From Candidatus Hydrothermia bacterium (lineage in GTDB: Bacteria; Hydrothermota; Hydrothermia; LBFQ01; DSFT01), in assembly GCA_032249175.1 (NCBI GenBank), contig JAVVGK010000002.1:1-37921 (forward strand): a stretch of DNA of 37,921 bases, in the 5' to 3' direction. The translations under genes and the position numbers were made by a program. Each line of letters starts with the position of its first letter. Within the stretch, counting starts at the first letter, position 1. This document shows, in pieces, positions 1 to 37,921 of the stretch. The notes under the pieces are model-generated. The model was not told where the DNA came from, did not search any database, and saw only the letters and a list, made by a program, of their open reading frames with translations.

Positions 1-23
1 TTTCAGAATTATTGGATAAAGCA
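1..23 (+). repeat. Repeat box copy (TTTCAGAATTATTGGATAAAGCA) at window start
   Basis: Near-identical to boxes at 5618-5640(-), 5800-5819(+), 20053-20075(-), 20171-20187(+) and 37891-37913(+). Confidence 0.85.
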
Positions 24-40
24 TAAATCATATACTTCAT

Positions 41-54
41 GCTTTAAAATTTTC
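41..54 (+). promoter_or_regulatory. Promoter-like motif GCTTTAAAATTTTC (TAAAAT -10-type core)
   Basis: 3 nt upstream of ATG 58, with no SD. The same motif recurs before other operon-first genes and the tRNA. Confidence 0.6.
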
Positions 55-5228: not shown

Positions 5229-5576
5229 TCAACCCTTAATTTTATTTTTATTTAATTCATCTTCAATAACATTAAGCCAAGCTAATAAATATCCTTTCCT
5301 AATAATTTTTTCTACTTCATCATCATATTGCTCATCAGGTGGTTTAAGAATTGATAAAATAATAGCTTTGGATAATGCTTCTACTATATCTTCTATACTA
5401 CTATTTATAAATTCGGAGAAAACTGAGGGAAATTCTTGCGAGTATTTTTGATAAAATTCATTCCTAATCTCATCAAGAATTTCCTTATTTTCATTTTCAA
5501 TATTCATATTTCTAATTTCTTCAATAAGTGCTTTCCTAACATTTAAAAGAATTCTTTCCCTTAACATTTCAATCAT
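5229..5576 (-). CDS. Hypothetical small acidic, predicted all-helical protein
   Basis: The ORF track gives 5229-5666, but residues encoded by 5618-5640 (SRIIGQSN) come from the repeat box. The internal ATG at 5576 sits 9 nt downstream of a perfect promoter-like motif (5586-5599), so the shorter start is preferred. No family recognised. Confidence 0.55.
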   Translation of the reverse strand: MIEMLRERILLNVRKALIEEIRNMNIENENKEILDEIRNEFYQKYSQEFPSVFSEFINSSIEDIVEALSKAIILSILKPPDEQYDDEVEKIIRKGYLLAWLNVIEDELNKNKIKG

Positions 5577-5585
5577 ATTTAGAAA

Positions 5586-5599
5586 GAAAATTTTAAAGC
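5586..5599 (-). promoter_or_regulatory. Promoter-like motif GCTTTAAAATTTTC
   Basis: 9 nt upstream of ATG 5576 (minus strand) and 18 nt downstream of box 5618-5640. Confidence 0.55.
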
Positions 5600-5677
5600 T
5601 TTTAATTTCTAATTTGTTGCTTTGTCCAATAATTCTGGAATATAGATTATTCCTTATTTTTCCCACCCGCCCTGAAA

Positions 5678-5694
5678 ATAAGGCTTCGCCTTAT
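5678..5694. other. Hairpin ATAAGGC-TTC-GCCTTAT (7-bp stem, 3-nt loop) inside the repeat element
   Basis: Direct inspection of complementarity. Confidence 0.8.
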
Positions 5695-5714
5695 AAATAC
5701 CCATCTTTTGCTTT

Positions 5715-5731
5715 GGGGGGCTTCGCCCCCC
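5715..5731. other. Hairpin GGGGGGC-TTC-GCCCCCC (7-bp all-GC stem, 3-nt loop) inside the repeat element
   Basis: Direct inspection. Same GGC-TTC-GCC core as hairpin 5678-5694. Confidence 0.8.
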
Positions 5732-5806
5732 TTAAATCCCCCATTAAATCAATAGTTTTAGAAAATTTTTTATAACTTATTGATTGTCAAGAACTTAACA
5801 ATAATT

Positions 5807-5833
5807 ATTGGACAAAGCACTAATTTGTCCAAT
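5807..5833. other. Hairpin/palindrome ATTGGACAAA-GCACTAA-TTTGTCCAAT formed by the right box and an adjacent inverted half-box
   Basis: 10-bp perfect complementarity with a 7-nt loop, by direct inspection. Confidence 0.75.
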
Positions 5834-5846
5834 TCTGCTTCACTTG

Positions 5847-5860
5847 ACTTTAAAATTTTC
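5847..5860 (+). promoter_or_regulatory. Promoter-like motif ACTTTAAAATTTTC
   Basis: 5 nt upstream of fadN ATG 5866. Confidence 0.6.
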
Positions 5861-5865
5861 GCATT

Positions 5866-8166
5866 ATGAGAAAAGTTGCTGTTCTTGGAGCAGGAACGAT
5901 GGGTTCTCAAATAGCAGCTCATTTGGCAAATAATGGAATAGAAGTTATTCTCCTTGACTTAAATAAAGATATAGCTAAAAATGGCTTAAAAAGAGCATTA
6001 GAAATAAATCCGCCTGCCTTTATGGATAAGGAATTTAAAAATTTTATAAAAATTGGAGGATTTGATAGTGATTTTGAATTAATAAAAGATGCTGATTGGA
6101 TAATTGAAGCAGTTGTTGAAAAAATTGAAGTTAAAAGAGAGGTTTTTGATAAAGTTGAAAAATATAGAAAAAATAATAGTATTGTTTCTTCAAATACATC
6201 GGGAATTCCTATAAAATTGCTTGCTGAAAATAGAAGCGATAATTTTAAAGAGCATTTCCTTGGAACCCATTTCTTTAATCCTCCAAGATATATGAAATTG
6301 CTTGAAATTATACCAACTGAATGGACAAAAAAAGAAGTTATAGAAAAAATAAAAGAATTTTGTGAGGATGTTCTTGGTAAAGGAATTGTTTTTTCAAAAG
6401 ATACCCCAAACTTTATTGCTAATAGAATAGGAACATTTTCTATAATGATGGTTTTTAAACTTATAGATGAGATGGATTTAAAAATTGAGGAAGTAGATTA
6501 TTTAACAGGAGAATTAATTGGAAGACCCAGAACAGGAACATTTAGATTAGCTGATTTGGTTGGAATTGATGTTTTATATAATGTTGCTAAGAATTTAGAA
6601 AATCTTTTAACTAATGATGAATTTAAAGATGTTTTTAAAATTCCTCAATTTCTTAATGAAATGGTAAGTAGAAATTTAATTGGTGATAAAGTTAAATCAG
6701 GGTTTTATAAAAGGGAAAATAATAAACGTTTTGTTATTGATTTAAAAACACTTGAATACAGAGAAGCAATTAATGTAAATATTCCTGAGTTTTTCCAAAT
6801 TCAAAATATGGAAAATTTAGAAGATAGAATAAGGGCTATATTTAGTTTGAATACAAAGCATGCAGAATTTCTTAAAAAATTACTAACTTCAATTCTTGTT
6901 TATAGCGTAAATAGGATTGGTGAAATTGCTGATGATATTGTTAATATAGATAATGCATTAAAGTGGGGTTTTAATTGGAAATTAGGACCATTTGAAACAA
7001 TTGATGTTATCTCAAAAGAAAACTTTGAAAAATTGGTTAATTCCTATAATTTTCCATTAAATAAGGAAATTCCTGAAAAGTTTTATAAGGATAAAATGTT
7101 TTATGATTACAATTCAAGGAGTTATAAGCCAATTGAAAGAAGAAAGGAAATTATTATTATTTCTGAAATAAAAAAAGAAAATAAGGTTATTCTTGAAAAT
7201 TCAGAAGCAAGTTTAATTGATTTAAATGATGGTGTTTTATTATTAGAATTTCATTCAAAAGCTAATACTATTGGTATAGGAACAATTCAAATGTTAAATA
7301 GTGCTTTGGATATTCTTGAAAAGGAGAAAAAATTTATTGGACTTGTAATAACAAATGATGATGAAAGAAACTTTTCAGCAGGTGCGAATTTAGGTTTAAT
7401 TGCTATGTCAATTGGAGAGGGGGCATTTGATGAAATTGAAAGAGCAGTTTTAAACTTCCAAAAAGTTAATATGAGAATGAAGTACTTTAAAAAGCCAATA
7501 GTAGCGGGAGCATTTGGTATAGCGGTTGGTGGTGGTTGTGAGTTATTATTACATACTCATAGAATTGTTGCTCATAGTGAATTATACACGGGGCTTGTTG
7601 AAGTTGGAGTTGGGCTTATTCCTGCAGGTGGTGGCACAAAAGAATTTACAATAAGAGCATTAAATTATCCACAAGATGCTGAAAATTATGATGTTTTACC
7701 AATTTTTAGATTATATCTTGAAAATATAGGAAAGGCAAAGGTTAGCTCTTCTGCCTATGAGGCAAAAAATATGGGTATTTTGAAAGATGGAGATATTATT
7801 ATTTCAAATAGAGATTTTTTAACATATTATGCTAAAAATTTGGTAATTGGTTTATATAATGCTGGATTTAAAGGATTTTATGGTCCTAAAAGAGTTAGAA
7901 TGCTTGGATGGGATGGTTATAGTGCAGTTTTAGCAAGCTTAATAAATTTAAAGAGAGGGAATTTCATAACTGAGCATGATTCATTCATTATTGAAAAACT
8001 TGCTTATGTTATGACAGGAGGACCAGATGTTGCTCCTGGAACAATTTTTGACGAATGGCAAATTCTTGAAAATGAAAGAAAAGTCTTTATTGAGCTTGTT
8101 AAACATCCAAAAACCCAAGAAAGAATTTTTTATTTCCTAAAAAATAGAAAACCATTAAGAAATTAA
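5866..8166 (+). CDS. fadN: Fused 3-hydroxyacyl-CoA dehydrogenase / enoyl-CoA hydratase (FadN-type domain order: N-terminal dehydrogenase, C-terminal crotonase)
   Basis: 766-aa ORF. N-terminal Rossmann motif VAVLGAGTMGSQIA and HFFNPP. C-terminal crotonase-like FSAGANL...GGGCELLL. Promoter-like motif 5847-5860 lies 5 nt upstream. Confidence 0.85.
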   Translation: MRKVAVLGAGTMGSQIAAHLANNGIEVILLDLNKDIAKNGLKRALEINPPAFMDKEFKNFIKIGGFDSDFELIKDADWIIEAVVEKIEVKREVFDKVEKYRKNNSIVSSNTSGIPIKLLAENRSDNFKEHFLGTHFFNPPRYMKLLEIIPTEWTKKEVIEKIKEFCEDVLGKGIVFSKDTPNFIANRIGTFSIMMVFKLIDEMDLKIEEVDYLTGELIGRPRTGTFRLADLVGIDVLYNVAKNLENLLTNDEFKDVFKIPQFLNEMVSRNLIGDKVKSGFYKRENNKRFVIDLKTLEYREAINVNIPEFFQIQNMENLEDRIRAIFSLNTKHAEFLKKLLTSILVYSVNRIGEIADDIVNIDNALKWGFNWKLGPFETIDVISKENFEKLVNSYNFPLNKEIPEKFYKDKMFYDYNSRSYKPIERRKEIIIISEIKKENKVILENSEASLIDLNDGVLLLEFHSKANTIGIGTIQMLNSALDILEKEKKFIGLVITNDDERNFSAGANLGLIAMSIGEGAFDEIERAVLNFQKVNMRMKYFKKPIVAGAFGIAVGGGCELLLHTHRIVAHSELYTGLVEVGVGLIPAGGGTKEFTIRALNYPQDAENYDVLPIFRLYLENIGKAKVSSSAYEAKNMGILKDGDIIISNRDFLTYYAKNLVIGLYNAGFKGFYGPKRVRMLGWDGYSAVLASLINLKRGNFITEHDSFIIEKLAYVMTGGPDVAPGTIFDEWQILENERKVFIELVKHPKTQERIFYFLKNRKPLRN

Positions 8167-11633: not shown

Positions 11634-12881
11634 TTAAAATTTTAAAGGTTTTTTAATAGTTAATGCTATTAAAACTAATTCAAGAGGTATCATTTTAGCT
11701 TTTGCTCTTGCACACTCAGAAGGACCGAGTATCCAATATGAAAAAAATATTATAGCAGACAATAAATAAAAGACTATTAAAATTCTCAATTCACTGTCTA
11801 TTTTCCTAAAATTCAATAAAGAATAAATAAAACAAAAAGTAAAAAATAATCCCCATATTACAAATGTCCATGGTTGGATTTTCAAAATTATATCATTTAC
11901 ATTTTTTCTAAAACTTGTAGGCTTTATAAAAAGAGCAAATGCTCCCGAAATAGTATTCTTAATGCTTTTTAAAATAAATTGGGTATTTAATTTGAACTCA
12001 TTTAATAACATTTCTCTTGCACATTTATCTAATTCATTAAAAGTCTTGCAACGATAGGCTTCAATACTAGGAAATCTGAGTTCATAACCAAGTCTTTTGC
12101 TAGCACAGCTATAAACTTCTTTCTTAGCAGATTCATAATCCATATTTTTATAACTAACCTTATAATATACAGCATAATGCCATACAAAAATATCCTTACA
12201 CAAGCTATTTGTAATAAATTGAACTGCAATAGGCAAAATAGAAATAAAAATATAAATTATTGAAAGTCTTTTCTTATGAAACAAATAAAAGAGATATATA
12301 ATAGGCAAAAGTGTAAATTCAGGTCTTGAAAGTGCCAACAAGGTTAAGAAAATTAAAGCTGTTAGTAATTTATTCCTTAAGTGAAATATAAGAAATAATA
12401 ATAAAAAGAAAATAGATATTGACTCAAGCAAAAGACTTGTTGTTTCTTTATATATATTAAAGAAAGCTAATGTAAGTAGCGATATGGAAAGAAAAAGATT
12501 TAAATTTAATTGATTTATAAGTATTGCTATTAAAATTGTATTAAAGAATGTAAAGAATATAATAAAAGCCAAGGCTGTCCAAGAGCCAAATAATTTCATA
12601 AAAATACCAAAGACATAACCTGATACAAAAATTCTTCTTCCTACTAATTCCTTCTTACCTTGTATTTCAATTACAGGAAAATTATATTTATAAACACCAT
12701 AACCTGCGGTTAAAAAATCATAGGTATCCCCTCTATAACCTATCCCCTCCTTATAAACAGAGGAAATAGAACTCAAATCCATTTTTAAACTCTTATTTTC
12801 TTTAATAGCATAATGTATTTTATTAGAAATTCCAAATATAGCCAAAACAATAGCTAAAATAAAAATAATTACACTTCTCAA
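11634..12881 (-). CDS. Polytopic integral membrane protein with a Cys-rich extracytoplasmic loop (possibly GT-C-like glycosyltransferase; family not established)
   Basis: 415-aa ORF, TTG start. Many hydrophobic spans. The loop between them contains 5 Cys (LCKD...SCASK...YRCKT...DKCARE). Promoter-like motif 12887-12900 lies 5 nt upstream. Confidence 0.6.
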   Translation of the reverse strand: MRSVIIFILAIVLAIFGISNKIHYAIKENKSLKMDLSSISSVYKEGIGYRGDTYDFLTAGYGVYKYNFPVIEIQGKKELVGRRIFVSGYVFGIFMKLFGSWTALAFIIFFTFFNTILIAILINQLNLNLFLSISLLTLAFFNIYKETTSLLLESISIFFLLLFLIFHLRNKLLTALIFLTLLALSRPEFTLLPIIYLFYLFHKKRLSIIYIFISILPIAVQFITNSLCKDIFVWHYAVYYKVSYKNMDYESAKKEVYSCASKRLGYELRFPSIEAYRCKTFNELDKCAREMLLNEFKLNTQFILKSIKNTISGAFALFIKPTSFRKNVNDIILKIQPWTFVIWGLFFTFCFIYSLLNFRKIDSELRILIVFYLLSAIIFFSYWILGPSECARAKAKMIPLELVLIALTIKKPLKF

Positions 12882-12886
12882 TTTCT

Positions 12887-12900
12887 GAAAATTTTAAAGG
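12887..12900 (-). promoter_or_regulatory. Promoter-like motif CCTTTAAAATTTTC
   Basis: 5 nt upstream of TTG 12881, within the 22-nt gap after the upstream gene's stop. Confidence 0.55.
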
Positions 12901-18182: not shown

Positions 18183-18196
18183 GAAAATTTTAAAGC
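18183..18196 (-). promoter_or_regulatory. Promoter-like motif GCTTTAAAATTTTC upstream of tRNA-Lys
   Basis: 6 nt upstream of the mature tRNA 5' end (18176). Because the downstream gene is a tRNA, the motif cannot be a translation signal. Confidence 0.65.
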
Positions 18197-20022: not shown

Positions 20023-20036
20023 GATAATTTTAAAGG
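20023..20036 (-). promoter_or_regulatory. Promoter-like motif CCTTTAAAATTATC upstream of fbp (leadered, with SD)
   Basis: 28 nt upstream of ATG 19994. The leader contains AAGGAGG. The box at 20053-20075 lies 16 nt further upstream. Confidence 0.5.
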
Positions 20037-20052: not shown

Positions 20053-20187
20053 TGTATTGTCCAATAATTCTAAAAGGCTTCGCCATAAAAACTTCGCCCC
20101 CTTAAATTCCCCAAAAAACAATAATTTCCTGAAATTTTTATAAGTTCTTGATAATCAACTACTTAACATCATTTATTAGACAAAGCA
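20053..20187. repeat. Second copy of the repeat element, internally deleted relative to 5618-5837
   Basis: Left box ATTGTCCAATAATTCT. AAGGCTTCGCC and CTTCGCCCCCTTAAATTCCCC segments. Right half TTTTTATAAGTTCTTGATAATCAA..ACTTAACA..ATTTATTAGACAAAGCA is collinear with 5735-5819. Confidence 0.8.
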
Positions 20188-21200: not shown

Positions 21201-23705
21201 ATGTTTTTAAATAATGAGCGATTTACAGATAAAGCAAAAAGAGCGCTTCTCTCGGCAAGGGAAGAAGCTTTAAGATTTGGAAATGAATATATAGGAACTG
21301 AGCATCTTTTACTTGGGATACTTAATGTTGGCGATAGTATTGCAATTTCTGCACTTACAAATTTAGGTGTTGATATAGAGGAGCTTAGAATGGCTGTTGA
21401 GCATTCAATCCATAGGGGTGAATTTTCAAGAAGAGATTTTTCTGCTGAGCTTCCACTTAATGCTTCATCAAAGAAAGCTATAAATGGTGCTATTGAAGAG
21501 GCAAGAAGAATGGGTCAAACATTTGTTGGACCAGAGCATTTGCTTCTTGGACTGCTAAAAGATAGAAGGTCATTAGCTGCTCAAATTCTTGAAAGTATGG
21601 GTATTGATTATGAAAGTATAAGGCAGGAAATTGTTAGACTTATAAATCAAAATAGATATGAAGAATCTATGGGTTATTCATCTGGTTATAGTTATTTCCC
21701 TTCTTATGAGCAAAGAAGAACAACTACACCACAAGCACCAAGACAATCAAATACAAGAGTTTTAGATAGTTTCTCAATAGATTTAACACAATTAGCAAGA
21801 GAGGGGAAATTAGACCCTGTTATTGGTAGAGAAGAAGAGATTGAAAGAGTTATTCAAGTTCTTTCAAGAAGAAAGAAAAATAATCCTGTTTTAATTGGTG
21901 AGCCTGGTGTTGGTAAAACTGCTATTGTTGAAGGTCTTGCCCAAAGAATAGCAAATGATGAGGTCCCTCCTATATTAAGAAATAAAAGAATTGTCGCTCT
22001 TGACCTTGCTGCTATTGTAGCAGGAACAAAATATAGAGGTCAATTTGAAGAGAGAATAAAAGCTATATTAAATGAAGTTATAAATGCTCCTGATGTAATA
22101 CTTTTTATAGATGAGCTTCATACAATGATTGGTGCTGGTGCTGCTGAGGGGGCATTAGATGCTGCTAACATTTTAAAACCTGCACTTGCAAGAGGACAAA
22201 TAAGACTTATTGGTGCTACTACACTAGAAGAATATAAGAAATATATTGAAAGAGATGGTGCACTTGAAAGAAGATTTCAACCAATAATTATTGAGCCACC
22301 TTCTGTTGAAGAAACCATTAGGATTCTTGAAGGCTTAAAGAGAGAATATGAAGAATATCATGGGGTGATATATACACAAGAAGCTATTGAAGCTGCTGCC
22401 AAACTTTCAGATAGATACATTCAAGATAGATATTTACCTGATAAAGCTATTGATGTTTTAGATGAAGCAGGAGCAATGGTTAAACTCACTAAACAAATTG
22501 ATGACCCAGAATTAAACAAACTTCAAAGAGAATTGGAGCAAATTAGAAAGAGGAAAGCTTTTGCGGTTAGAAAAGAAGAATATAATTTAGCGGAAAAATT
22601 AAAGCAAAAAGAGGAAGAAATTCTTGAAAAAATTAGAAAGAGGAAAATGGAAATAAAAAAAGAAACTGCAGAAGTTAGTTATGAGGATGTTGCTAAGGTA
22701 ATATCAAGATGGACAGGCATACCACTAACTCAAATAAGTTCGGACGAGGAAAGTAAATTATTAAAACTTGAAGAAGAGCTTAAAAAATATGTAATAGGTC
22801 AAGATTATGCTATTAGTTTATTAGCAAAAGCAATTAGAAGAAATAGGGCAGGTATTAAAGATCCTAAAAGACCTATTGGCTCGTTTGTATTTCTTGGTCC
22901 AACAGGTGTTGGTAAAACTGAGCTTGCTAAAAGTTTAGCGAGAGTACTATTTGGAAGTGAGGATGCTCTTATAAGAATAGATATGAGTGAATATATGGAA
23001 AAACATAATGTTTCAAGACTTATAGGTTCGCCTCCTGGTTATGTTGGGTATGAAGAGGGTGGTCAATTAACTGAGAAAGTTAGAAGAAGACCTTATAGTG
23101 TAATTCTTTTTGATGAAATTGAAAAGGCTCATCCTGATGTATTTAATATATTGCTTCAAATCCTTGAAGATGGAATACTAACTGATGGACTTGGAAGAAC
23201 AGTCAGTTTTAGAAATACAATTATAATAATGACATCAAATATAGGAACAAAGCAAATTAGAGAAACAAAACACTTGGGTTTTTCAGTAAAGGAAGAAAAG
23301 GAACTTGATTATAATGAGCTTGAAAAAATGTTAAAAGATGAATTTAAAAAAGTAGTTTCTCCTGAATTTCTAAATAGAATAGATGAGATTATTGTTTTTA
23401 GACCATTGAATAAAGAAGACTTAAAGAGAATTATTGAAGTAATGTTAAGAGATTTAAGGGAAAGATTGAAAGAAAAGCATATTACTATTAGAGTTTCTGA
23501 TAGATTAAAGGAATTTTTAGTTAATCAAAGTTATGACCCTGAATTCGGTGCAAGACCTTTAAGAAGAGCTATAAGAAAATATATAGAAGAGCCAATAAGT
23601 GAAGCAATAATAAAAGGAGAAGTTAAAGAGAACGCTGATGTTCTAATTGATTTAAATGATAATAATGAAGTTGTTTTTAGAACGGATGTTTTAAGTGTGC
23701 TTTAA
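21201..23705 (+). CDS. clpC: ATP-dependent Clp protease ATP-binding subunit ClpC (class I AAA+ with two Clp_N repeats, short M-domain)
   Basis: 834-aa ORF. Clp_N repeats ([11 protein letters not shown] / [11 protein letters not shown]). Walker A motifs GEPGVGKT and [11 protein letters not shown]-like coiled segment. GARPLRR sensor motif. SD-like GAGGTAGG upstream. Confidence 0.92.
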
Positions 23706-23711
23706 AATTTC
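23699..23711 (+). promoter_or_regulatory. Promoter-like motif GCTTTAAAATTTC upstream of rpsT
   Basis: Overlaps the clpC stop codon and lies 3 nt upstream of ATG 23715. Confidence 0.55.
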
Positions 23712-28759: not shown

Positions 28760-29635
28760 TTAAATAACTTCTCTTGGTTTCAAATTCAAAATATCCCAAA
28801 TTTCATTTTCAACACAAGTATTTCCTTCAAGTAGCATTTTAATTTGCTCATCACTTGCAGGAAACAATTCAAAATATCTAAAAATTCTTGCTAATGGTAA
28901 GATAATAAATTTTGGAATATAAATGGGAATTATAAATTTATTTTTTGATTTTGCTATTGCTTTCACAAAATCAACATATTGCCATTCTTTATTTCCACAA
29001 ATATGAAAAATTCTTTTATATGTTTTTTCGTTATTTATACTCCTTACAAAAATTTCTGCAATATCTTCTCTATGAACGGGACTAATTTTATATTTACCAT
29101 CTGAAAAAATTGGGAAGAATATAAATTTAGATAAATCAAGGACAAGTTTTTTAAAATTAAATAACTCATCATCATCAATAATTAAACTTGGTCTAAAAAT
29201 CGTCCAATTTAAATCTGTTTTTTTTAGATATTCTTCTGCCATATATTTTGTTCTTTGATAATTTGTCCCATTTTCTTTAACACCATTTGCACTCATTAAA
29301 ATAAATCTATTTATATTTAGTTTTATAGCCAAATCAATTGCTTTTTTCGTAAAATTATAATGATAATCAATAAATTTGATGTTCTTTTGTGGAAATTCCC
29401 TTATCAAACCAATCAAATAAATAACACAACTTATATTATAATTCTTAATTTCATATTCATATTTTTCAATCTCCCTAATATCTCCAATTATTGTTTTTAT
29501 TCTATCTTTTAAATCTCCAAGTTTTCTTATGGAATTTTCTCTTACAAGAAGAATTGGATTGTAGTTATATTCCAAAAGTTTTCTTGTTATAGCTTTTCCT
29601 ACAAAACCGCTTCCTCCAAGAACAAGCACATTCAT
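28760..29635 (-). CDS. NAD(P)-binding SDR / epimerase-dehydratase family protein (NDUFA9/NmrA-like)
   Basis: N-terminal MNVLVLGGSGFVGKAI Rossmann motif. YxxxK-like YQRTKYMAE. 291 aa. Overlaps the carH-like stop. Confidence 0.75.
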   Translation of the reverse strand: MNVLVLGGSGFVGKAITRKLLEYNYNPILLVRENSIRKLGDLKDRIKTIIGDIREIEKYEYEIKNYNISCVIYLIGLIREFPQKNIKFIDYHYNFTKKAIDLAIKLNINRFILMSANGVKENGTNYQRTKYMAEEYLKKTDLNWTIFRPSLIIDDDELFNFKKLVLDLSKFIFFPIFSDGKYKISPVHREDIAEIFVRSINNEKTYKRIFHICGNKEWQYVDFVKAIAKSKNKFIIPIYIPKFIILPLARIFRYFELFPASDEQIKMLLEGNTCVENEIWDILNLKPREVI

Positions 29636-30495
29636 TTTCTTTTCCTCCTTTTATAAAGTTGATTTTTTATGTCTTTTAAAAGCTCTCTATACGATGTATA
29701 TATTTTTTTGTTTAGATTTGGTTTTTCTCCATACATGGGTCCTCCAATAAATAATATACAGTTTATTTCCTTACAACCTTTATCTAAAATCTCTATACTT
29801 TTTTCAAATTTCCTTTTATCAATAATATATACTGCTGAAATTATTAAAAAATTAGGTTTTTCTCTTTCAATTGTTTTTGTAATATCAGAGTAAGGTGTAT
29901 TTGCTCCTACATATATAACATTATATCCTTCATAAGTTAAGATAAAATCAATAATTCTCAAAGGTATTTCATGAATATCACCTTCAAGGGAAGTTATTAC
30001 AAGTTTTATTTTCTTTTTCTTTTTAGCTTCAAATAAATTCTTTAAATTGATAATTGATTCAATAATTTTTGATGAGGCAATATGTTCTTGGTCTACACTA
30101 ATTTCTCCCTTTTCCCAAAGCAAACCAAGTTCAGATAAACTTTTGCTTACAATCAAATCAAATGCTTTAATAACTCCAAATGAAAATAAAATTATTTTTA
30201 ATAAATTTTCAACCTCTTTTTGACTTTTATTTAACATATAATTTAGTAATTCCTTTGATAATTCCTCATAATCTTCAAAAATAATATAAGTTAGGGTATT
30301 GACATCAGCATTTGAAAAACCAGCTAAATCAATTATTTTATTATCTTTAATAAATTTTACAATTTCTTCAATTGGAAATCTCCTATGACCACCTATTGTT
30401 TTATGGAATTTTAATAATCCTTCTCTTGACCAGTTTTTTATCGTTGCTTCACTTACACCTAAAATTTTTGCTAAATCTTTGGTTTTTAAAAACAT
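29632..30495 (-). CDS. carH: CarH/LitR-type light-responsive transcriptional regulator (MerR-type HTH + B12-binding domain)
   Basis: HTH LKTKDLAKILGVSEATIKNWSREGLL...GGHRRF. Exact Wx9EH photoreceptor signature (WEKGEISVDQEH). B12-binding region GDIHEIPL...IISAVY...FIGGP. ATG 30495 is 3 nt after motif 30499-30512. The ORF-track start at 30558 would add a hydrophobic N-terminal extension and is unlikely. Confidence 0.8.
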   Translation of the reverse strand: MFLKTKDLAKILGVSEATIKNWSREGLLKFHKTIGGHRRFPIEEIVKFIKDNKIIDLAGFSNADVNTLTYIIFEDYEELSKELLNYMLNKSQKEVENLLKIILFSFGVIKAFDLIVSKSLSELGLLWEKGEISVDQEHIASSKIIESIINLKNLFEAKKKKKIKLVITSLEGDIHEIPLRIIDFILTYEGYNVIYVGANTPYSDITKTIEREKPNFLIISAVYIIDKRKFEKSIEILDKGCKEINCILFIGGPMYGEKPNLNKKIYTSYRELLKDIKNQLYKRRKRK

Positions 30496-30498
30496 TTT

Positions 30499-30512
30499 TA
30501 AAATTTTAAAGG
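30499..30512 (-). promoter_or_regulatory. Promoter-like motif CCTTTAAAATTTTA upstream of carH
   Basis: 3 nt upstream of ATG 30495. Divergent from the crtI promoter-like motif. Confidence 0.5.
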
Positions 30513-30522
30513 ATAAAATCGC

Positions 30523-30540
30523 TAAAAAAGATAAAAAAGA
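30523..30540. promoter_or_regulatory. Tandem perfect 9-bp direct repeat TAAAAAAGA x2 between the carH and crtI promoter-like motifs (candidate operator)
   Basis: Direct inspection. Located in the 36-nt spacer between the divergent motifs. A low-complexity A-run makes chance occurrence possible. Confidence 0.3.
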
Positions 30541-30548
30541 TAATTTAT

Positions 30549-30562
30549 GCTTTAACATTTTA
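30549..30562 (+). promoter_or_regulatory. Promoter-like motif GCTTTAACATTTTA upstream of crtI
   Basis: 7 nt upstream of ATG 30570. One mismatch in the TAAAAT core. Confidence 0.45.
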
Positions 30563-30569
30563 AAACTTT

Positions 30570-32000
30570 ATGAGAGCTGTTGTTGTGGGTTCTGGAATAG
30601 GTGGATTAGCTACTGCTATAAGGCTTAGAAAGCTTGGATATAAAGTTATTATTCTTGAAAAAAATGAAAAAATAGGTGGAAGGATGGATTATATTGAAAA
30701 TAATGGTTATTTTTTTGATACAGGTCCAACATTACTTTTAATGCTAAAACCACTAATTGAACTATTTAAAGAAGTTGAAGAAAATATAAATGACTATCTT
30801 AATCTTGTAAAAATTGACCCTCTTTATAGAATATATTTTAAAGATGGAAGTTTCCTTGAACCATCAAATGATTTAGCTTATTATGTTAGACAAGTCTCAT
30901 TAAAAGAATTTAAAAATTTACTTAAATTTTATTCTGACATAACTTATATGTATAACGATACAATTTATAATTTTGTAGAAAAAAATTATTATTCGGTTTT
31001 TGACTTTTTGAATTTAAGAAGTGTAAAATTACTTTTGAAACATAAAATGCTTGATAATTTGTATTATAGAGTTTCAAGATATTTTGATGATTATAGACTT
31101 ATATTTGCTAATACATTTCAGAGTATGTACCTTGGAATTTCTCCATTTAATGCTCCATTTGTATATACCGTTGTGAATTATATGGAAGCTATTGAGGGTA
31201 TATATTATCCAATTGGTGGTATGTATCAGATTGTTAAATCTCTTGAAAAAATTATAAGTAAAATGAATTTAAGAATTTTAAGAGAAACGGAAGTTAAAGA
31301 AATAGATAAAAAAACTAATACAATATATACAAATAAAGGATTTTTTGATGCTGATGTTATTGTAATAAATGCTGATTTACCATATGCTAAAAGTGATTTA
31401 TTAAATGAGAAATTACCAAATTATGATTATTCCTGCTCAACGATAATGTTGTATATTGGTTATGAAGGTTCAACGAATATGCTTCATCATAATGTATTTT
31501 TAACAGATAATTACAAACAATCATTTGAGAGTATTTTTAATAAAGGCATTATTCCAAATGATTTATCATTTTATGTTAATATATCTTCAAAAACTGATAT
31601 AAGTCAATCTCCTAAAAACTGTGAGAATATATATATTTTAATTCCTGTTCCTAATTTAAAAGTTTTAAGGGAAAATTTAAATGAAAAATTAAACGAGATT
31701 ATAAATAAGGTTTTTGATAGACTTGAAAGTCAAACGAATTTTAGAAGAGAAAGAATAAAATTCATAATAAAAAGGACACCTTATGATTGGCAAAGTTTAT
31801 ATAACCTTAAATATGGTTCTGCTTTTGGTCTTTCTCATAAGTTTTTACAAAGTGCATATTTTAGACCTAAAAACTACGAAAAGAAGGGTATTTACTATGT
31901 AGGAGCTTCAACAATTCCAGGAAGTGGTATTCCTATGGTTTTAATATCTTCAAAGCTTGTTATTGAAAGGATTTTAAAAGATTATGGTAATGCTCCTTAG
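30570..32000 (+). CDS. crtI: Phytoene desaturase (CrtI family FAD-dependent oxidoreductase)
   Basis: MRAVVVGSGIGGLATAIRL...ILEKN..IGGR dinucleotide fold. C-terminal YYVGASTIPGSGIPMVLISSK is typical of CrtI. Confidence 0.88.
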   Translation: MRAVVVGSGIGGLATAIRLRKLGYKVIILEKNEKIGGRMDYIENNGYFFDTGPTLLLMLKPLIELFKEVEENINDYLNLVKIDPLYRIYFKDGSFLEPSNDLAYYVRQVSLKEFKNLLKFYSDITYMYNDTIYNFVEKNYYSVFDFLNLRSVKLLLKHKMLDNLYYRVSRYFDDYRLIFANTFQSMYLGISPFNAPFVYTVVNYMEAIEGIYYPIGGMYQIVKSLEKIISKMNLRILRETEVKEIDKKTNTIYTNKGFFDADVIVINADLPYAKSDLLNEKLPNYDYSCSTIMLYIGYEGSTNMLHHNVFLTDNYKQSFESIFNKGIIPNDLSFYVNISSKTDISQSPKNCENIYILIPVPNLKVLRENLNEKLNEIINKVFDRLESQTNFRRERIKFIIKRTPYDWQSLYNLKYGSAFGLSHKFLQSAYFRPKNYEKKGIYYVGASTIPGSGIPMVLISSKLVIERILKDYGNAP

Positions 32001-32766
32001 AATAAGTTTTATTATATCAATTCTAATTTTTATTTTTAGTATTTTAGGATTTTTTGTATTAAAATTTTTCCCTCATTTAACAGCTAATGTTTCAAGTTTA
32101 ATTCCATTTTTTATTAAATTTGGTGCGATTGGATTTACATTATCAACTATTTTCTGTTCATTTATCATTAGTATAAATTGTTTTGGATTTTTTAGAACGG
32201 TTTTATTATTTTCAATATCATTTATAACATCATTAACTATGGAATTATCTTCAACTTATAATGGTTTTCCATTTGGTAATTATAAATATACTGATTTCTT
32301 AGGTTATAAAATTTTAAATGAAGTTCCTATAATTATTCCATTATCTTGGTTTTCAATTGTTTCATTATCTTATTTAATTGCTAAAAGATTACTATTTAGT
32401 GGGTTTAGTTTGATAATTGCTTCAACATTATTTGGATTCTTTTGGGATTTGTCTTTGGATTTTGCTATGACAAAAACTTACCCATTTTGGTATTGGATAG
32501 ATAAAGGCTTTTTGTATGACATGCCTATAAAAAACTGGGGTGGTTGGTTATTTACATTGTTTATAATAAATTTTGTATTTTATGTTTTAAATGGAAATAG
32601 TTCTGAAAGATATTCAAAATATGTTTTTTATTTGTATCTTTTAATTGTTGGATTTAGTGTTTTAATGTCGTTATTAGGAGGTGGTTTAGTTCCGTTTGTT
32701 TTTGGGGTTTTGGGAATTTTAATAATAATTTCAATTTCAATGATAAGAAATGTGAAATTATGGTAG
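31984..32766 (+). CDS. Carotenoid biosynthesis membrane protein (DUF422/CruF-like, putative carotenoid 1,2-hydratase)
   Basis: 260-aa polytopic ORF located between crtI and crtB. Size, topology and position fit the Caroten_synth/CruF family. No diagnostic motif could be verified by eye. Confidence 0.5.
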   Translation: MVMLLRISFIISILIFIFSILGFFVLKFFPHLTANVSSLIPFFIKFGAIGFTLSTIFCSFIISINCFGFFRTVLLFSISFITSLTMELSSTYNGFPFGNYKYTDFLGYKILNEVPIIIPLSWFSIVSLSYLIAKRLLFSGFSLIIASTLFGFFWDLSLDFAMTKTYPFWYWIDKGFLYDMPIKNWGGWLFTLFIINFVFYVLNGNSSERYSKYVFYLYLLIVGFSVLMSLLGGGLVPFVFGVLGILIIISISMIRNVKLW

Positions 32767-34031
32767 ATTATAAATTTTTTGAAAAAATTATATCTAAGCA
32801 TGCGAATACATTCTATTTAGCAAGTTTAAGTTTGCCAAAACATTTAAGGTACGATTTTTGGGTAATTTATAGTTATTGTAGATTAGTAGATGAGATTGCT
32901 GATAATTTTTTTATAATTAATGATAAACAGAAAGCTTTGGATGAAATATATCAAATTAAAGAAAATTTAATTTTAGCCTTTGAAGGAAATTATAACAAGG
33001 ATAATAAAATTTTTTTAGGTCTAAAAGAAGTTTTTAAAAAGTACAAATTTGATATAAAACCATTTCTTGAACTTATTGATGGTGCTATTTGGGATATTAA
33101 AGGTATTGAAATTGAAAATTTAAATGATTTAATAAATTATTCAAAATTGGTTGCAGGTTCAGTTGGAGCGATGTTATTTCCAATTATTTCAAATTATAAA
33201 AATGAAGAAATTTTAAAATCTGCTTATAATTTTGGGATTTTTATGCAAATTGTAAATATTCTTAGAGATGTTGGAGAAGATTATAAAATAAGGAAAAGAA
33301 TTTATATTCCAAGAACAATTTTAAAAGAATTTTCAATAAAAGAATTTCATATAAAACATGGCTTAATTACACCAAATTATATTGATATGTTAGAATTTTT
33401 AATGGAAATTGCTGAAAAATTATTTTATGAAAATGTTGATAAAATAAAATTTTTAAGAGAAGAAATAAGAAAAGCTATTTATAGAGCAGGTATATGGTAT
33501 CTTGAAATTTTAAATGCTATAAGATTTAACGATTATGATAATATAAATAAAAGGGCTTATGTAAATAGATTTTTTAAGTTTTTAAGTTTGTTTTTTGATT
33601 ATAGAATTAAAAAGGAGATTTTAAAAAGAGCTAAAAAATTTAAATTTTTAAAATTTGAAGAAAGGCTTGATGTTAAAAAAGATGTAATTGTAAATTTTCA
33701 TTCTGATTTTTCAAATGCTAATGTAAATTTACCCTTTGGGAAAATTATTGTTAGTGATGCTAAAATAGAAAGTGAAAAAATTATAGATTTTTTAGTTGAT
33801 TTTAAAATTTTTAGAAAAAAATTAACATTATATATTATTGAGTTTAACGAAAATGAGCTTGTGGATTACTTTGAAAATTGGTTTCATATACATAGATTTT
33901 ATGATAATAAAATTATTGAAATTGTTGGATATAAACTTCCTATTCCGGCATTCTTAATGAAACTATTTTTTAATATAAGATATAAGAGGTTAAAAAATGC
34001 GATTAATAAGTATATTTTCAAGAGATTTTAG
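32760..34031 (+). CDS. crtB: Phytoene synthase (CrtB) with about 140-aa C-terminal extension of unknown function
   Basis: SFYLASLSLPK...YSYCRLVDEIAD (first Asp-rich motif) and NILRDVGEDY (second). Typical CrtB ends near residue 280-300, whereas this ORF runs to 423 aa. Confidence 0.85.
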   Translation: MVDYKFFEKIISKHANTFYLASLSLPKHLRYDFWVIYSYCRLVDEIADNFFIINDKQKALDEIYQIKENLILAFEGNYNKDNKIFLGLKEVFKKYKFDIKPFLELIDGAIWDIKGIEIENLNDLINYSKLVAGSVGAMLFPIISNYKNEEILKSAYNFGIFMQIVNILRDVGEDYKIRKRIYIPRTILKEFSIKEFHIKHGLITPNYIDMLEFLMEIAEKLFYENVDKIKFLREEIRKAIYRAGIWYLEILNAIRFNDYDNINKRAYVNRFFKFLSLFFDYRIKKEILKRAKKFKFLKFEERLDVKKDVIVNFHSDFSNANVNLPFGKIIVSDAKIESEKIIDFLVDFKIFRKKLTLYIIEFNENELVDYFENWFHIHRFYDNKIIEIVGYKLPIPAFLMKLFFNIRYKRLKNAINKYIFKRF

Positions 34032-35259
34032 ACTTTTGGACAATAAATTATTTGAGGGATATGAGAATAATGAGATAATTCCATTATTTTTATTTGATGA
34101 ATTTAATCAAATTGAGCATGGAGAAAACCTAAAAAGTTTATTTTTTAAAACGATTGAAAATTTTGAAGAAGAACTAAAAAAATTAAATAGTTATCTATAT
34201 AAAATTAAACTTGAAGATTTCGGAAAATTTTTAGATATTTCTAAACCTGATGTTGTTAGGGTTTGTTATGATAGTGAGCCAAGAACACTACAAAGAATAA
34301 AATTTATAGAAAACGAATGTTTAAGAAGAAATATAAAACTTGAAAAAGTTTATCAATTTTTAATTGAGCCTAAATTTGAAAAGTTCAATTTTGTTAGTTT
34401 TTCACAATTTTATAGAACATTTAAAGATGAAGATTTTGGAAAAATTATAGAAAGACCTAAATTTTTAATAACTCCCAAAATTACTTTTAATGAAATTCAA
34501 ATTCCAAAAATAAACAATAATAATAAAATTATCAAATTGTATTTTAAAACCGAAGAAGAAGTTTTAAAACATTTTAAAAAATTTAAAGAAGAGAAGTTAG
34601 AAAATTATTCAAAATTTAGAGATTATCCTTATCTTAATTGGACATCAAAACTTTCAATATATTTTAGAATGGGTCTTATTTCATATAGATATGTTATCAA
34701 TAATGTTAGTGATGAGGCATTTAGAAGGGAAATTATGTGGAGTGAGTTTTTTAGACTTTGGCTTTTTTATAATCAAGAATGTGTAAATTTAGAATATGAT
34801 AAAAAGTGGAGAAATTTTAAGTGGGATTATGATGAGGAAAAATTTAATGCTTGGAAGGAAGGTAGGACAGGTTATTTAATTGTTGATGCGGGAATGAAAC
34901 AATTAATTGAAGAAGGTTTTATTCACAATAGAGTTAGGATGATTTGTGCGAGCTTTTTAATTAAGAATCTTCATATTGATTGGAGACTTGGTGAAAGATG
35001 GTTTTATAGGAATTTAGTAGATGCTGATTTAAGCTCAAACTTAGGAAATTGGCAATGGGTTGGTGGTTTTGGTCTTGATAAAGCGCCTTATTTTAGAGTT
35101 TTTAATCCTGAAATTCAAAGACAAAAATTTGACCCTAATTTTGAGTATATAAAAACTTATATTCCGAATTATCAGAATTATAAATATAAACCTATTGTTG
35201 ATTTTTACGAAAGTAGAAAAGAATTTATAAATAAAGCAAAAAAAATTTATGAATTGTAG
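33997..35259 (+). CDS. phr: Deoxyribodipyrimidine photolyase (CPD photolyase/cryptochrome family)
   Basis: TGYLIVDAGMKQL...GFIHNRVRMICASFLIKNL.IDWR.GERWF...LVDADLSSNLGNWQW...FRVFNP are canonical FAD-binding photolyase motifs. Confidence 0.9.
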   Translation: MRLISIFSRDFRLLDNKLFEGYENNEIIPLFLFDEFNQIEHGENLKSLFFKTIENFEEELKKLNSYLYKIKLEDFGKFLDISKPDVVRVCYDSEPRTLQRIKFIENECLRRNIKLEKVYQFLIEPKFEKFNFVSFSQFYRTFKDEDFGKIIERPKFLITPKITFNEIQIPKINNNNKIIKLYFKTEEEVLKHFKKFKEEKLENYSKFRDYPYLNWTSKLSIYFRMGLISYRYVINNVSDEAFRREIMWSEFFRLWLFYNQECVNLEYDKKWRNFKWDYDEEKFNAWKEGRTGYLIVDAGMKQLIEEGFIHNRVRMICASFLIKNLHIDWRLGERWFYRNLVDADLSSNLGNWQWVGGFGLDKAPYFRVFNPEIQRQKFDPNFEYIKTYIPNYQNYKYKPIVDFYESRKEFINKAKKIYEL

Positions 35260-37786: not shown

Positions 37787-37800
37787 AAAATTTGATAGGA

Positions 37801-37921
37801 TTATTAAGCGAGAGTGAAGCCCCCGAGGCATAAAAATGGGTATTTGTAATCAAAAGTCTTATTTTCAGGGTGAGCAAGGAAAATAAATAATTTCAGAATT
37901 ACTAGACAAAGCACTATATTT
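37801..37921. repeat. Third copy (left half, inverted orientation) of the repeat element, running off the window end
   Basis: The reverse complement aligns with 5618-5735 (TGCTTTGTCTAGTAATTCTGAAA...CACCCTGAAAATAAGAC...AAATACCCAT...GGGGGCTTC). Hairpin arms are degenerate here. Confidence 0.8.

Follow-up and report, generated by a model that had tools for sequence, protein, structure and literature searches.

A MITE family of 'Ca. Hydrothermia' found at a fixed distance from a promoter-like motif shares its ends with an element encoding a TnpB-related protein

The Correia (NEMIS) elements of Neisseria are non-coding units of ~100–200 bp that are bounded by terminal inverted repeats (TIRs) and present as hundreds of intergenic copies, often adjacent to promoters. 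They duplicate TA, are not known to keep a set distance from a promoter motif or to face it with one particular end, carry an internal IHF-type site, and affect both assembly and genome rearrangement. IS1397 and ISKpn1 (REP loops), IS4321 and IS5075 (Tn21 ends), and Ty3 (Pol III start sites) each insert at one set position, and in one orientation, with respect to a recurring genomic signal; safe-haven insertion spares genes and yields clustered or nested copies. The IS200/IS605 group includes several non-autonomous kinds, among them IS1341-type TnpB-only elements, PATEs, and Sulfolobus SMN1, which is linked to ISC1733 (PMC3718332, PMC4810608). IS200/IS605 elements have subterminal hairpins and no TIRs, make no target duplication, insert directly 3' of a 4–5-nt motif, and use a Y1 transposase, TnpA (PMC4810608). 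Characterised TnpBs are RNA-guided nucleases, and their elements are likewise without TIRs and without duplications (PMC4810608). TnpB genes in TIR-bounded elements are also known, with a separate DDE transposase present or acting in trans, as described in a recent survey (Altae-Tran et al. 2023, PMC10691335).

We analyzed a 37,921-nt stretch of DNA (38 kb; the window), in which an intergenic, non-coding element of 202 bp lies at 5618–5819. Like the Correia elements, the family to which it belongs is short, non-coding, TIR-bounded, and present in hundreds of intergenic copies. Unlike them, it makes a 9-bp duplication, one given end (L, as opposed to R) faces the host motif CTTTAAAATTT at 19 nt, and the element that shares its TIRs codes for no recognised DDE transposase but for a TnpB-like protein. 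The signal is a host −10-like promoter motif with insertion near −35, which differs from the signals used by IS1397/ISKpn1, IS4321/IS5075, and Ty3; a literature search found no bacterial IS or MITE precedent for promoter-motif targeting. The family resembles the non-autonomous IS200/IS605 elements in being short, linked to an OrfB/TnpB IS (here through a partner IS with a TnpB (OrfB)-type protein), common in thermophiles, and set in a fixed orientation by a short sequence (PMC3718332, PMC4810608). However, it has perfect 17-bp TIRs at its very ends and 9-bp duplications, and the motif lies 10 nt away from the duplicated site. We rejected Sulfolobus SMN1/ISC1733 as a direct precedent, as SMN stands for 'mobile non-inverted repeat' (PMC3839810). 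As in the DDE-associated TnpB transposons (Altae-Tran et al. 2023, PMC10691335), a TnpB-family gene lies within symmetrical inverted terminal repeats and has its 3' end near the transposon end. In contrast to those transposons, the present ORF runs into the TIR, and no DDE partner was found in ~1.05 Mb of fragmentary contigs. Neither a MITE derivative nor promoter-motif targeting is described in the sections of the survey consulted (PMC10691335).

The initial annotation had proposed a MITE-like element at 5618–5837 with exactly reverse-complementary termini. The termini do pair at 17 of 17 positions, and the pairing reaches 24 nt once mismatches are allowed. They are of the TG...CA type; the family consensus for the L-TIR is TGCnTTGTCCAATAATT, and the tail of the R-TIR, ...TTGGACAAAGCA, is near-invariant across 80 distinct units. 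The only ORFs overlapping the unit are chance ORFs of at most 53 aa, and contigs L005 and L008 carry an identical copy. The proposed extent needs correction at its right side: 5618–5819 is the element, and 5824–5837 is target DNA past the right end that overlaps the duplication. This half-box does form a 10-bp palindrome with the right end (5824–5833 against 5807–5816), as had been noted, and is probably a degenerate remnant end in the target DNA; BLASTN within the window gave no more element homology beyond it. The 9-bp duplication, the orientation rule, and the fixed distance to a promoter motif were absent from that annotation.

Table 1. Positions of the element, its parts and neighbors, and related copies. 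Coordinates refer to the window unless a contig is named.
Feature	Position	Strand	Remarks
Full-length MITE copy	5618–5819	+	Strand equals L-to-R orientation by definition here; end-to-end match to the 205-position family HMM
L-TIR TGCTTTGTCCAATAATT	5618–5634	+	17/17 perfect complement of 5803–5819
R-TIR AATTATTGGACAAAGCA	5803–5819	+	Exact reverse complement of 5618–5634
Target-site duplication, left copy CTAATTTGT	5609–5617	.	Same 9-mer abuts TIR
Target-site duplication, right copy CTAATTTGT	5820–5828	.	Same 9-mer abuts TIR
TIR-like TTTGTCCAATTCTG	5824–5837	+	Target DNA, overlaps right duplication copy
Subterminal C-rich box CCCACCCGCCCT	5662–5673	+	At least 90% conserved, 80 units
Hairpin 1, ATAAGGC-TTC-GCCTTAT	5678–5694	+	Predicted in consensus fold
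Hairpin 2, GGGGGGC-TTC-GCCCCCC	5715–5731	+	G and C runs at least 90% conserved
Palindrome TTGATnnTCAA	5773–5790	.	Conserved alignment columns
Promoter-like host motif CTTTAAAATTTTC, 115-aa gene with start codon 5576	5586–5598	-	Exactly 19 nt from element L end
Promoter-like host motif CTTTAAAATTTTC, 3-hydroxyacyl-CoA dehydrogenase/enoyl-CoA hydratase gene with start 5866	5848–5860	+	28 nt from R end
Truncated copy, L end	1–23	-	Unit continues past window start
Internally deleted copy, 135 bp, both TIRs	20053–20187	+	Between divergent genes
Truncated copy (L half), L end at 37913	37790–37913	-	BLASTN, other contigs
IS copy	L131 5706–7238		Same TIRs, duplication AGCCTTAAA, single 456-aa ORF
Decayed IS copy	L201 604–2022		Duplication CTTCAATTC

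BLASTN within the window matched the element to 20092–20187 (79% over 99 nt, E 2e-16), 37790–37920 (reverse orientation, 70% over 141 nt, E 1e-14), and 1–54 (80% over 55 nt), in agreement with the homologous copies reported earlier. Because these alignments extend past the promoter-proximal box, the similarity is not limited to it. The box does recur upstream of genes, and it is simply the TIR of elements inserted next to promoters. The box previously placed at 1–23 and the homologous copy placed at 37801–37921 (here 37790–37913) are truncated units in the opposite orientation. The window has four copies in all, of which one is complete, one has an internal deletion, and two are truncated, and in addition one TIR-like remnant. 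The copy at 1–23 lies 18 nt from the motif at 42–54, ahead of a gene starting at 58, and the remainder of this unit was found in L005 (9880–9966). The L end of the 20053–20187 copy is 17 nt from a motif variant, CTTTAAAATTA (20025–20035, minus strand), of a class V FBPase gene. The window stops inside the flank CTATATTT of the 37790–37913 copy, where other contigs hold one to two more units. Since the window both begins and ends in copies, the element breaks metagenome assemblies; it probably also drives rearrangements, with consequences for the quality of WOR-3 MAGs and for the annotation of promoters.

An nhmmer search of about 1.05 Mb of related DNA (WOR-3/"Ca. Hydrothermia" metagenome and MAG contigs, 27% GC, fragmentary) returned 329 matches to the ~203-bp family, 146 of them full-length and 137 distinct. 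When GTDB representatives were scanned with the 15-nt TIR, the matches listed were mostly chance single ones, and the one genome among them with the end sequence on many contigs was a WOR-3 MAG. The 9-bp flanks were identical at 9/9 positions in 38 of 138 distinct units and at 8/9 in 8 more, compared to 0.17% matching when flanks were paired at random. Flanks no longer match in about 55% of units, which requires later recombination or block movement. A related genome has an empty site: the queuosine-synthesis gene and the FTCD gene are separated by 31 nt in L005, and in L014 a unit with the duplication AAATTATTT lies between them. Units also form arrays, with junctions of exactly 9 nt in 40 of 49 cases and a head-to-tail arrangement in 48 of 49; the longest comprise four complete units, or six with partial ones. 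Two blocks of two units have the duplication outside only (L203 1697–2083 and L179 2291–2717). The size, TIRs, duplication, copy number, and empty site expected of a MITE were thus all found, the transposase of an autonomous partner being the one exception, and the earlier suggestion of a MITE-like dispersed repeat is borne out by these features together with a larger element that has the same ends. Neither of the two outcomes that would have counted against a dispersed family, a lack of further copies or a similarity restricted to the box, was observed. We conclude that 5618–5819 is a non-autonomous DNA transposon (MITE) and that low-GC WOR-3 ('Ca. Hydrothermia') bacteria of hot springs and hydrothermal settings carry its family in great abundance.

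The motif CTTTAAAATTTTC found beside start codons (5586–5598 on the minus strand, 5848–5860, and 42–54) is a host motif outside the element. The host motif CTTTAAAATTT was located at 335 distinct sites, where base composition predicts 11. An ORF start follows at 253 of these, mostly within 4–8 nt, and one site lies 5 nt ahead of tRNA-Lys. By its position statistics, CTTTAAAATTT looks like the −10 promoter element of leaderless genes. Among free L ends (148 independent loci), CTTTAAAATTT is present at 17–20 nt in 92 and at 10–13 nt in 23 more, and about 18% have no CTTTAAAATTT within 70 nt. For R ends (118 loci), the corresponding numbers are 3 and 2. The 19 nt separating the L end from the motif are without conservation. 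Reading the TIR as a sigma-54 site or as a sigma-70 −35 element was rejected, as neither these unconserved 19 nt nor the spacing to the −10-like motif fits. Where the neighboring genes stand in tandem, 87 of 92 units are oriented as predicted, and the L ends of five of six distinct IS copies are exactly 19 nt from the motif. The target rule is thus obeyed by the protein-coding IS as well, and it explains the orientation bias of the units wholly. Selection could add to the position bias besides insertion preference, and we consider this unlikely because the peak is so sharp.

The best overall explanation, to which we assign a probability of about 80%, is a MITE that makes a 9-bp staggered cut in its target, is targeted by a promoter motif, and is moved in trans by IS machinery. 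The target receives a 9-bp staggered cut, giving rise to the 9-bp duplications. Insertion is specific for both site and orientation, with the duplicated 9 bp placed 10 nt from CTTTAAAATTT and the L end facing the motif at 19 nt. If CTTTAAAATTT is the −10 element, the unit would land at about −35 and leave the core promoter unbroken. Head-to-tail arrays with exact 9-bp spacing are accounted for by reuse of the same promoter-defined target and by movement of multi-unit blocks. Targeting of a resident copy's end was considered for the arrays and set aside, as the promoter-distance rule is simpler for the same pattern; for some arrays, in which the spacers differ, block transposition has to be invoked. 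The MITE itself would be mobilised by the machinery of the IS that shares its TIRs.

A search for TIR pairs identified this IS, which is 1.5 kb long and has the TIRs of the MITE and a 9-bp duplication. In L131, its ORF ends 15 nt from the element end, running into the R-TIR; bona fide IS transposase genes also run into the TIR. The TnpB-related ORF is the sole ORF between the ends in the complete copies examined (L131, L201, and L246). The last of these, from another organism, encodes a homologue that is 47% identical; its ends (TGCCTTGTCGCAA / TTGCGACAAAGCT) are related to those of the IS, and its 9-bp duplication (TTAGTAGAA) is perfect. A Thermocrinis ruber homologue (L244) was rejected as evidence, its inverted repeat of 18 nt being imperfect and its duplication found only with an offset. 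The protein belongs to the Pfam SSO2105_N family and scores 58 bits against TIGR01766 (TnpB-related; cut-off 32) and 55 bits against guided_TnpB, under that model's cut-off of 100. The RuvC triad (D189, E252, D319) is invariant in 29 homologues, which carry the source name 'IS605 OrfB family transposase'. The closest folds are Cas12k, Cas12f, and RuvC, at low TM-scores of 0.2–0.3 and with a model pLDDT of 64. Local alignment of MITE and IS showed nothing in common beyond the ends (~18 nt) and, more loosely, a single subterminal box, so we rejected the idea that the MITE arose from the IS by deletion.

Within the element, the GC-rich blocks are the best-conserved interior positions against a background of 27% GC. 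Both hairpins with a GGC-TTC-GCC core and the CCCACCCGCCC run (5662–5672) described in the initial annotation are present. The loop of hairpin 2 is variable (TTC, AAA, AGA, TTT, or GGA). At one stem position of hairpin 1, 65 units have a C-G pair and 10 a G-C pair; as this swap tracks subfamilies, it may reflect one or two events. The covariation term of RNAalifold for the unit is only −0.67 kcal/mol, and for either strand it is mostly TIR-TIR pairing that determines the fold z-score. At gathering score, Rfam 15 matched tRNA-Lys alone in the window and nothing in the element, and a permissive-threshold search also gave nothing for the element. The best sub-threshold match in 5500–5950 scored 21.8 bits against a cut-off of 58.6, consistent with the earlier remark that no known RNA family was recognised. 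Neither internal hairpin qualified in a terminator scan, whose sole match was the palindrome formed by the R-TIR and the half-box. In the IS, a comparable box, CCCTCCACC, lies about as far from the L end. Most probably, the GC-rich hairpins and the C-rich box of the MITE are sites that transposition requires in cis; that they form a host RNA gene is less likely.

The enzyme that moves the family could be encoded elsewhere. On this reading, which we hold at somewhat below even odds, neither the MITE nor the TnpB-only 1.5-kb element is autonomous, both are moved by an unlinked DDE transposase belonging to a rarer autonomous element with the same TIRs, and the TnpB-related protein would be an RNA-guided nuclease passenger, perhaps aiding retention or homing. 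TG...CA TIRs and a fixed 9-bp duplication, both of which the element shows, are classic DDE signatures. The GC-rich 3' end of the ORF adjoins the R end and may code for an omega-RNA-like scaffold. In the survey, inverted terminal repeats are present in every one of the six TnpB branches associated with DDE transposases, and the near-identical ends around solo TnpBs imply mobilisation in trans (PMC10691335). However, when the ~1.05 Mb of fragmentary contigs was searched for TIRs paired within 6 kb and flanked by matching duplications, no DDE or other transposase lay inside such a pair; the search yielded only the TnpB-related ORF and one cargo-carrying block, and a listing of orphan TIRs was too noisy to bring out a further transposase. 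That no DDE gene turned up is weak evidence, as multi-copy IS assemble poorly. Two further points stand against a DDE enzyme in trans: the TnpB-related ORF is alone between the ends in all three complete copies and meets the R-TIR in L131, and TIR sequence and duplication length have been kept even though the protein has diverged to 47% identity. We give roughly even odds that target cutting and end joining are both carried out by the TnpB-related protein itself, which would then recognise the T-rich motif in the manner of a TAM and cut distal to it with a 9-nt stagger; to our knowledge, no TnpB has been demonstrated to be a transposase. A specific version, which we consider unlikely, is a RuvC-type TnpB-related integrase, in effect a site-specific transposase directed to promoters, that would read the motif as a TAM-like signal, cut TAM-distally at +10 and +19 counted from the motif edge, and join TIR DNA in a fixed orientation, with the MITE as its minimal substrate. 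The GC-rich interior of the MITE might then be a cis or RNA cofactor of the integrase.

Two readings make mobility secondary or absent. The unit could be a small-RNA gene or a cis-regulatory RNA/DNA module that is selected upstream of genes and contains a promoter of its own, the GC-rich hairpins, and a stem resembling a terminator. The conservation of GC-rich blocks in a 27% GC genome, the compensatory swap in hairpin 1 (65 vs 10 sequences), and an internal stretch with AAAATTTT that resembles the host promoter motif are all consistent with such a module, and strict gene-relative orientation would suit polar regulation. However, the target rule shared with the IS covers the orientation bias, the covariation is slight and its one swap follows subfamilies, and the fold z-scores mainly reflect TIR-TIR pairing on either strand. 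Given also that the unit has no Rfam family and its hairpins failed the terminator scan, we regard this module, including its proposed internal parts, as improbable. Even less can be said for an immobile bidirectional promoter/operator in which the 'termini' are operator half-sites through which a shared regulator controls divergent genes. The element does sit between divergent promoters, and the box recurs ahead of several window operons, always facing the gene. Nevertheless, 9-bp duplications of unrelated sequence around units and the empty site in a related genome refute an immobile operator, and arrays of up to four complete units, whole-unit homology over ~200 bp at hundreds of unrelated loci, and a protein-coding IS bounded by the same ends also speak against it, leaving it a negligible chance. 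A TetR-type operator was likewise rejected, the divergent 115-aa gene having no DNA-binding domain match.

MITEs are ordinary. What is unusual for the MITE described here is insertion tied to the host's promoter motif, precise to the single nucleotide and of fixed polarity, together with a TnpB/Cas12-family partner, the only protein linked to these TIR ends. Insertion at a promoter motif is a 'safe-haven' strategy of the kind that yeast Ty elements are known for. Either a whole family of TnpB-only elements depends on an unseen DDE enzyme, or a RuvC-type TnpB relative integrates; the latter would bear on the kinship of RNA-guided nucleases and transposases and on compact programmable insertion tools. 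The question is directly testable because the MITE offers a substrate of 200 bp and a target of 30 bp, both of them defined.

Three to four of about a dozen motif sites in the window, or about one in three or four, are occupied promoters. Within the full-length copy, AATCAATAAGTTA on the minus strand overlaps the palindrome at 5773–5790 and fits the IHF consensus WATCAANNNNTTR, making it a candidate IHF site.

The window copy carries the 9-mer CTAATTTGT directly outside both of its terminal inverted repeats (TIRs; 5609-5617 and 5820-5828), a target-site duplication that the initial annotation had overlooked and listed as a check. The features that it did describe were found: 17-nt termini that are perfect inverted copies of each other (5618-5634, 5803-5819), two GGC-TTC-GCC hairpins (5678-5694 and 5715-5731), a C-rich run (5662-5672) and a half-box palindrome in which 5824-5833 pairs with 5807-5816. 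G+C content of the window is 26.9%. Homologous copies elsewhere in the window were recovered by BLASTN as three further stretches, with alignments of up to 141 nt, so similarity among copies reaches well past the terminal box rather than being confined to the promoter-proximal part. In line with that annotation, no known RNA family was recognised: Rfam at the gathering score returned only a tRNA-Lys across the window and no credible match in 5500-5950.

Locations of element copies, host motif sites, neighbouring genes, contig divergence points and insertion sequences (window positions unless a metagenome or MAG locus, L, is named)
Feature	Location	Strand	Detail
Homologous stretch	20092-20187		BLASTN, 79% over 99 nt, E 2e-16
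Homologous stretch	37790-37920	reverse	BLASTN, 70% over 141 nt, E 1e-14
Homologous stretch	1-54		BLASTN, 80% over 55 nt
Left neighbour gene	start 5576	-	115 aa, no family assignment
Right neighbour gene	start 5866		fused 3-hydroxyacyl-CoA dehydrogenase/enoyl-CoA hydratase
Host motif sites	42-54, 5848-5860, 23700-23710	+	
Host motif sites	5586-5598, 11637-11647, 12887-12899, 18183-18195, 30501-30511	-	
Left element end	5618		19 nt to motif at 5598-5586
Left element end	23		18 nt to motif at 42
Left element end	20053		17 nt to motif variant at 20035-20025
Contig divergence	1-23 and 37790-37921		window ends
Contig divergence	L001/L002/L003		after 10564
Contig divergence	L005/L006/L007		before gene at window 58
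Intact insertion sequence	L131 5706-7238		1533 bp, duplication AGCCTTAAA; same insertion in L194
Insertion sequence, decayed ORF	L201 604-2022		duplication CTTCAATTC

The element belongs to a dispersed family, as had been proposed. A metagenome scan with an internal motif added 118 loci, and a profile built on 15 units matched 329 times in 1.05 Mb of related DNA (146 full-length, 137 distinct). Among 138 distinct units with both flanks, the flanking 9-mers were identical in 38 and matched at 8/9 positions in 8 and at 7/9 in another 8, while 9/9 identity occurred in 0.17% of randomly paired flanks. The duplicated 9-mers are AT-rich and otherwise unrelated to one another. An empty site was also found: 31 nt separate the queuosine-synthesis gene from the formiminotransferase gene in L005, from the window's own population, and 283 nt in the WOR-3 MAG described below, where the gap holds one unit flanked by AAATTATTT. 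Units often form arrays, with junctions between complete ends of exactly 9 nt in 40/49 cases and head-to-tail order in 48/49. Two-unit blocks with a matching 9-mer on the outer sides only (L203 1697-2083, L179 2291-2717) and a 1.7-kb TIR-bounded segment carrying two ABC-transporter genes (L206 3253-4979, duplication CTTCTTAAT) show that multimers and composites also move, so that the TIR ends can mobilise cargo. The family thus shows the defining features of a MITE and is a member of that class. A fixed regulatory region is excluded by the duplications, the empty site, the arrays and the movement of blocks.

Insertion follows a host signal. The motif CTTTAAAATTT(T/C), which adjoins start codons and lies outside the element itself, has 335 distinct sites in the 1.05 Mb where base composition predicts 11, and an ORF start (at least 80 aa) follows at 253 of them, mostly 4-8 nt on. 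One site lies 5 nt ahead of the mature 5' end of tRNA-Lys, which rules out a translation signal. TAAAAT placed 6-10 nt ahead of a start codon would look like the -10 element of leaderless mRNAs, and the motif statistics suggest that this WOR-3 lineage has a -10 element under strong conservation and that leaderless mRNAs are widespread in it. A leader with AAGGAGG is retained by a few genes, among them the one for FBPase at 19994.

Distances to the motif, counted on the outward-reading strand, were taken from each free element end after flanks had been collapsed into independent loci. The motif lay 17-20 nt away at 92 of 148 left ends and was absent within 70 nt at 27, as opposed to 3 and 92, respectively, of 118 right ends; at 10-13 nt it was found at 2 right ends. 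Before collapsing, the left-end mode was 19 nt (77 cases). No conservation is seen across the 19 bases in between. All window copies keep the rule. A second, smaller class of left ends has the motif at 10-13 nt (23 independent loci, e.g. L001 11078-11117).

The distance rule accounts for the single orientation seen in 87/92 units sited between co-directional genes, and for head-to-tail arrays with 9-bp spacing. Once a unit has inserted, the copy of the duplicated 9-mer nearer the promoter lies again at the preferred distance, and the next unit enters there, head-to-tail and 9 bp from the resident unit. If TAAAAT occupies -12 to -7, the element end falls at about -35 and the duplication at about -34 to -26, so the core promoter would survive insertion. 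Correia-type MITEs resemble this family in size, TIRs and promoter proximity, and IS elements that target REP sequences or Tn21 ends, like Ty3, likewise land at a signal that recurs in the host. Our literature search turned up no bacterial IS or MITE that lands at a fixed distance and polarity from a host -10 motif, and we found neither repeats nor transposons mentioned in a recent survey of WOR-3 genomes. The observation and its initial reading hold, and the added results attach to them a testable and potentially important question.

Eighty units, each pair below 95% identity, were aligned (mean column identity 80%). The right TIR (...TTGGACAAAGCA) is almost invariant, notably in its outer 12 nt, and the left TIR varies at positions 3-5 (TGCTTT, TGCCTT, TGGATT, TGGTGT). 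The TIRs are thus unequally constrained, and the less constant end is the one facing the promoter motif. The best-conserved interior parts are a box some 45 nt in from the left end (CCCACCCACCCT), both hairpins, a CCCCC run, ACTTAACA adjoining the right TIR, and a palindrome, TTGATnnTCAA; on the opposite strand the latter overlaps AATCAATAAGTTA, a putative match to the IHF consensus. The structure from RNAalifold consists of the TIR pairing and the two hairpins alone (covariation term -0.67 kcal/mol). In the first hairpin one pair is either C-G (65 units) or G-C (10 units), and TIR positions co-vary across ends (e.g. C-G in 43 units, T-A in 10). The TIR stem dominates both fold z-scores (-5.8 and -7.6). 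We take the interior to consist of cis-acting signals for transposition; that it is transcribed into an RNA is possible, though nothing here supports it.

When the 1.05 Mb were searched for paired TIRs with matching 9-mers at a separation of 260-6000 bp, two IS insertions were found. MITE and IS have in common only the ~18-nt ends and, loosely, a subterminal C-rich box. The motif lies exactly 19 nt away at 5/6 distinct IS left ends. The sole ORF of the intact IS (456 aa) begins 147 nt in from the left end and reaches to 15 nt from the right end, and so terminates within the TIR. Its product scores 58 bits against NCBIfam TIGR01766, 'TnpB-related protein' (cut-off 32), and 55 bits, under the cut-off, against the guided_TnpB model. 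More than 1600 homologues, mostly ~500-525 aa and named 'IS605 OrfB family transposase' (Pfam SSO2105_N), come from Hydrothermia, Calescibacterium and Thermocrinis. RuvC residues D189, E252 and D319 are invariant among 29 homologues. Only ~12 residues separate the TS motif from RuvC-III as read from the sequence; the zinc finger normally found there thus seems to be absent. A low-confidence AlphaFold model (pLDDT 64) matched Cas12k and Cas12f best in the PDB, and other Cas12 proteins and RuvC more weakly (E 0.008-0.07). In L246, from another organism, a 47%-identical homologue lies between ends TGCCTTGTCGCAA and TTGCGACAAAGCT with a perfect 9-bp duplication, TTAGTAGAA; given this divergence, ends and 9-bp stagger look like traits of the protein family. 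The L131 stretch from the ORF 3' end to the right TIR (about 6990-7238) appears much GC-richer than the 27% GC background and adjoins the transposon end, the usual place of the omega/reRNA scaffold in TnpB elements.

TIR-bounded units move with a 9-bp stagger, their position and polarity are fixed relative to the host motif, and ends, stagger and target rule are common to IS and MITE. We infer that whatever moves the IS also mobilises the MITE in trans. That the transposition machinery picks the target, as opposed to selection acting after random insertion, is favoured by the sharpness of the distance peak, by its restriction to one end and by the lack of conservation in the spacer. Membership in the IS200/IS605 or PATE classes, defined by having neither TIRs nor duplications, was ruled out since both are present here.

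The catalytic enzyme is the TnpB-related protein at about even odds. We lean towards it because the ORF is laid out like a genuine IS transposase gene, the ends change in step with the protein family, and the geometry is one of staggered cuts placed 10 and 19 nt beyond a T-rich motif. Cas12 and TnpB enzymes make PAM- or TAM-distal staggered cuts, which this geometry resembles. A DDE transposase could instead move both MITE and IS in trans, which we consider possible rather than probable. IS605-type TnpB elements are without TIRs and duplications (PMC4810608), and PMC10691335 describes TnpB genes inside TIR-bounded elements that contain a DDE transposase or are served by one in trans. No such partner was found between TIR pairs up to 6000 bp apart in the 1.05 Mb, which adds weakly to the case for the TnpB-related protein.

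Among the matches listed for the 15-nt end against representative genomes, most were single chance matches and one genome, a 'candidate division WOR-3' MAG, matched on five contigs; its loci hold ~30 units with 75-82% identity to the window copy. The closest proteins to the linked IS protein are labelled 'Candidatus Hydrothermia'. Exact-protein look-ups placed the window's genes on hot-spring-type metagenome contigs as well, and these part from one another exactly at the repeats of both window ends. A dispersed repeat would be expected to have this effect, whether by disrupting or mis-joining assemblies or through genuine rearrangements; here it reflects either strain rearrangement via the repeats or chimeric assembly. 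Past the terminal copies, contigs with the window's terminal genes run into different neighbour genes, and unit number at these repeats varies (one, two or three). Further window genes encode a class V fructose-1,6-bisphosphatase and ClpB/ClpC-type and NuoH homologues. At 29632-36088, genes for phytoene desaturase-like, carotenoid synthase, squalene/phytoene synthase, photolyase-type FAD-binding and methyltransferase proteins are divergent from the gene of a CarH/LitR-like, MerR-type regulator that has a B12-binding domain, and the region looks like a light-regulated carotenoid cluster.
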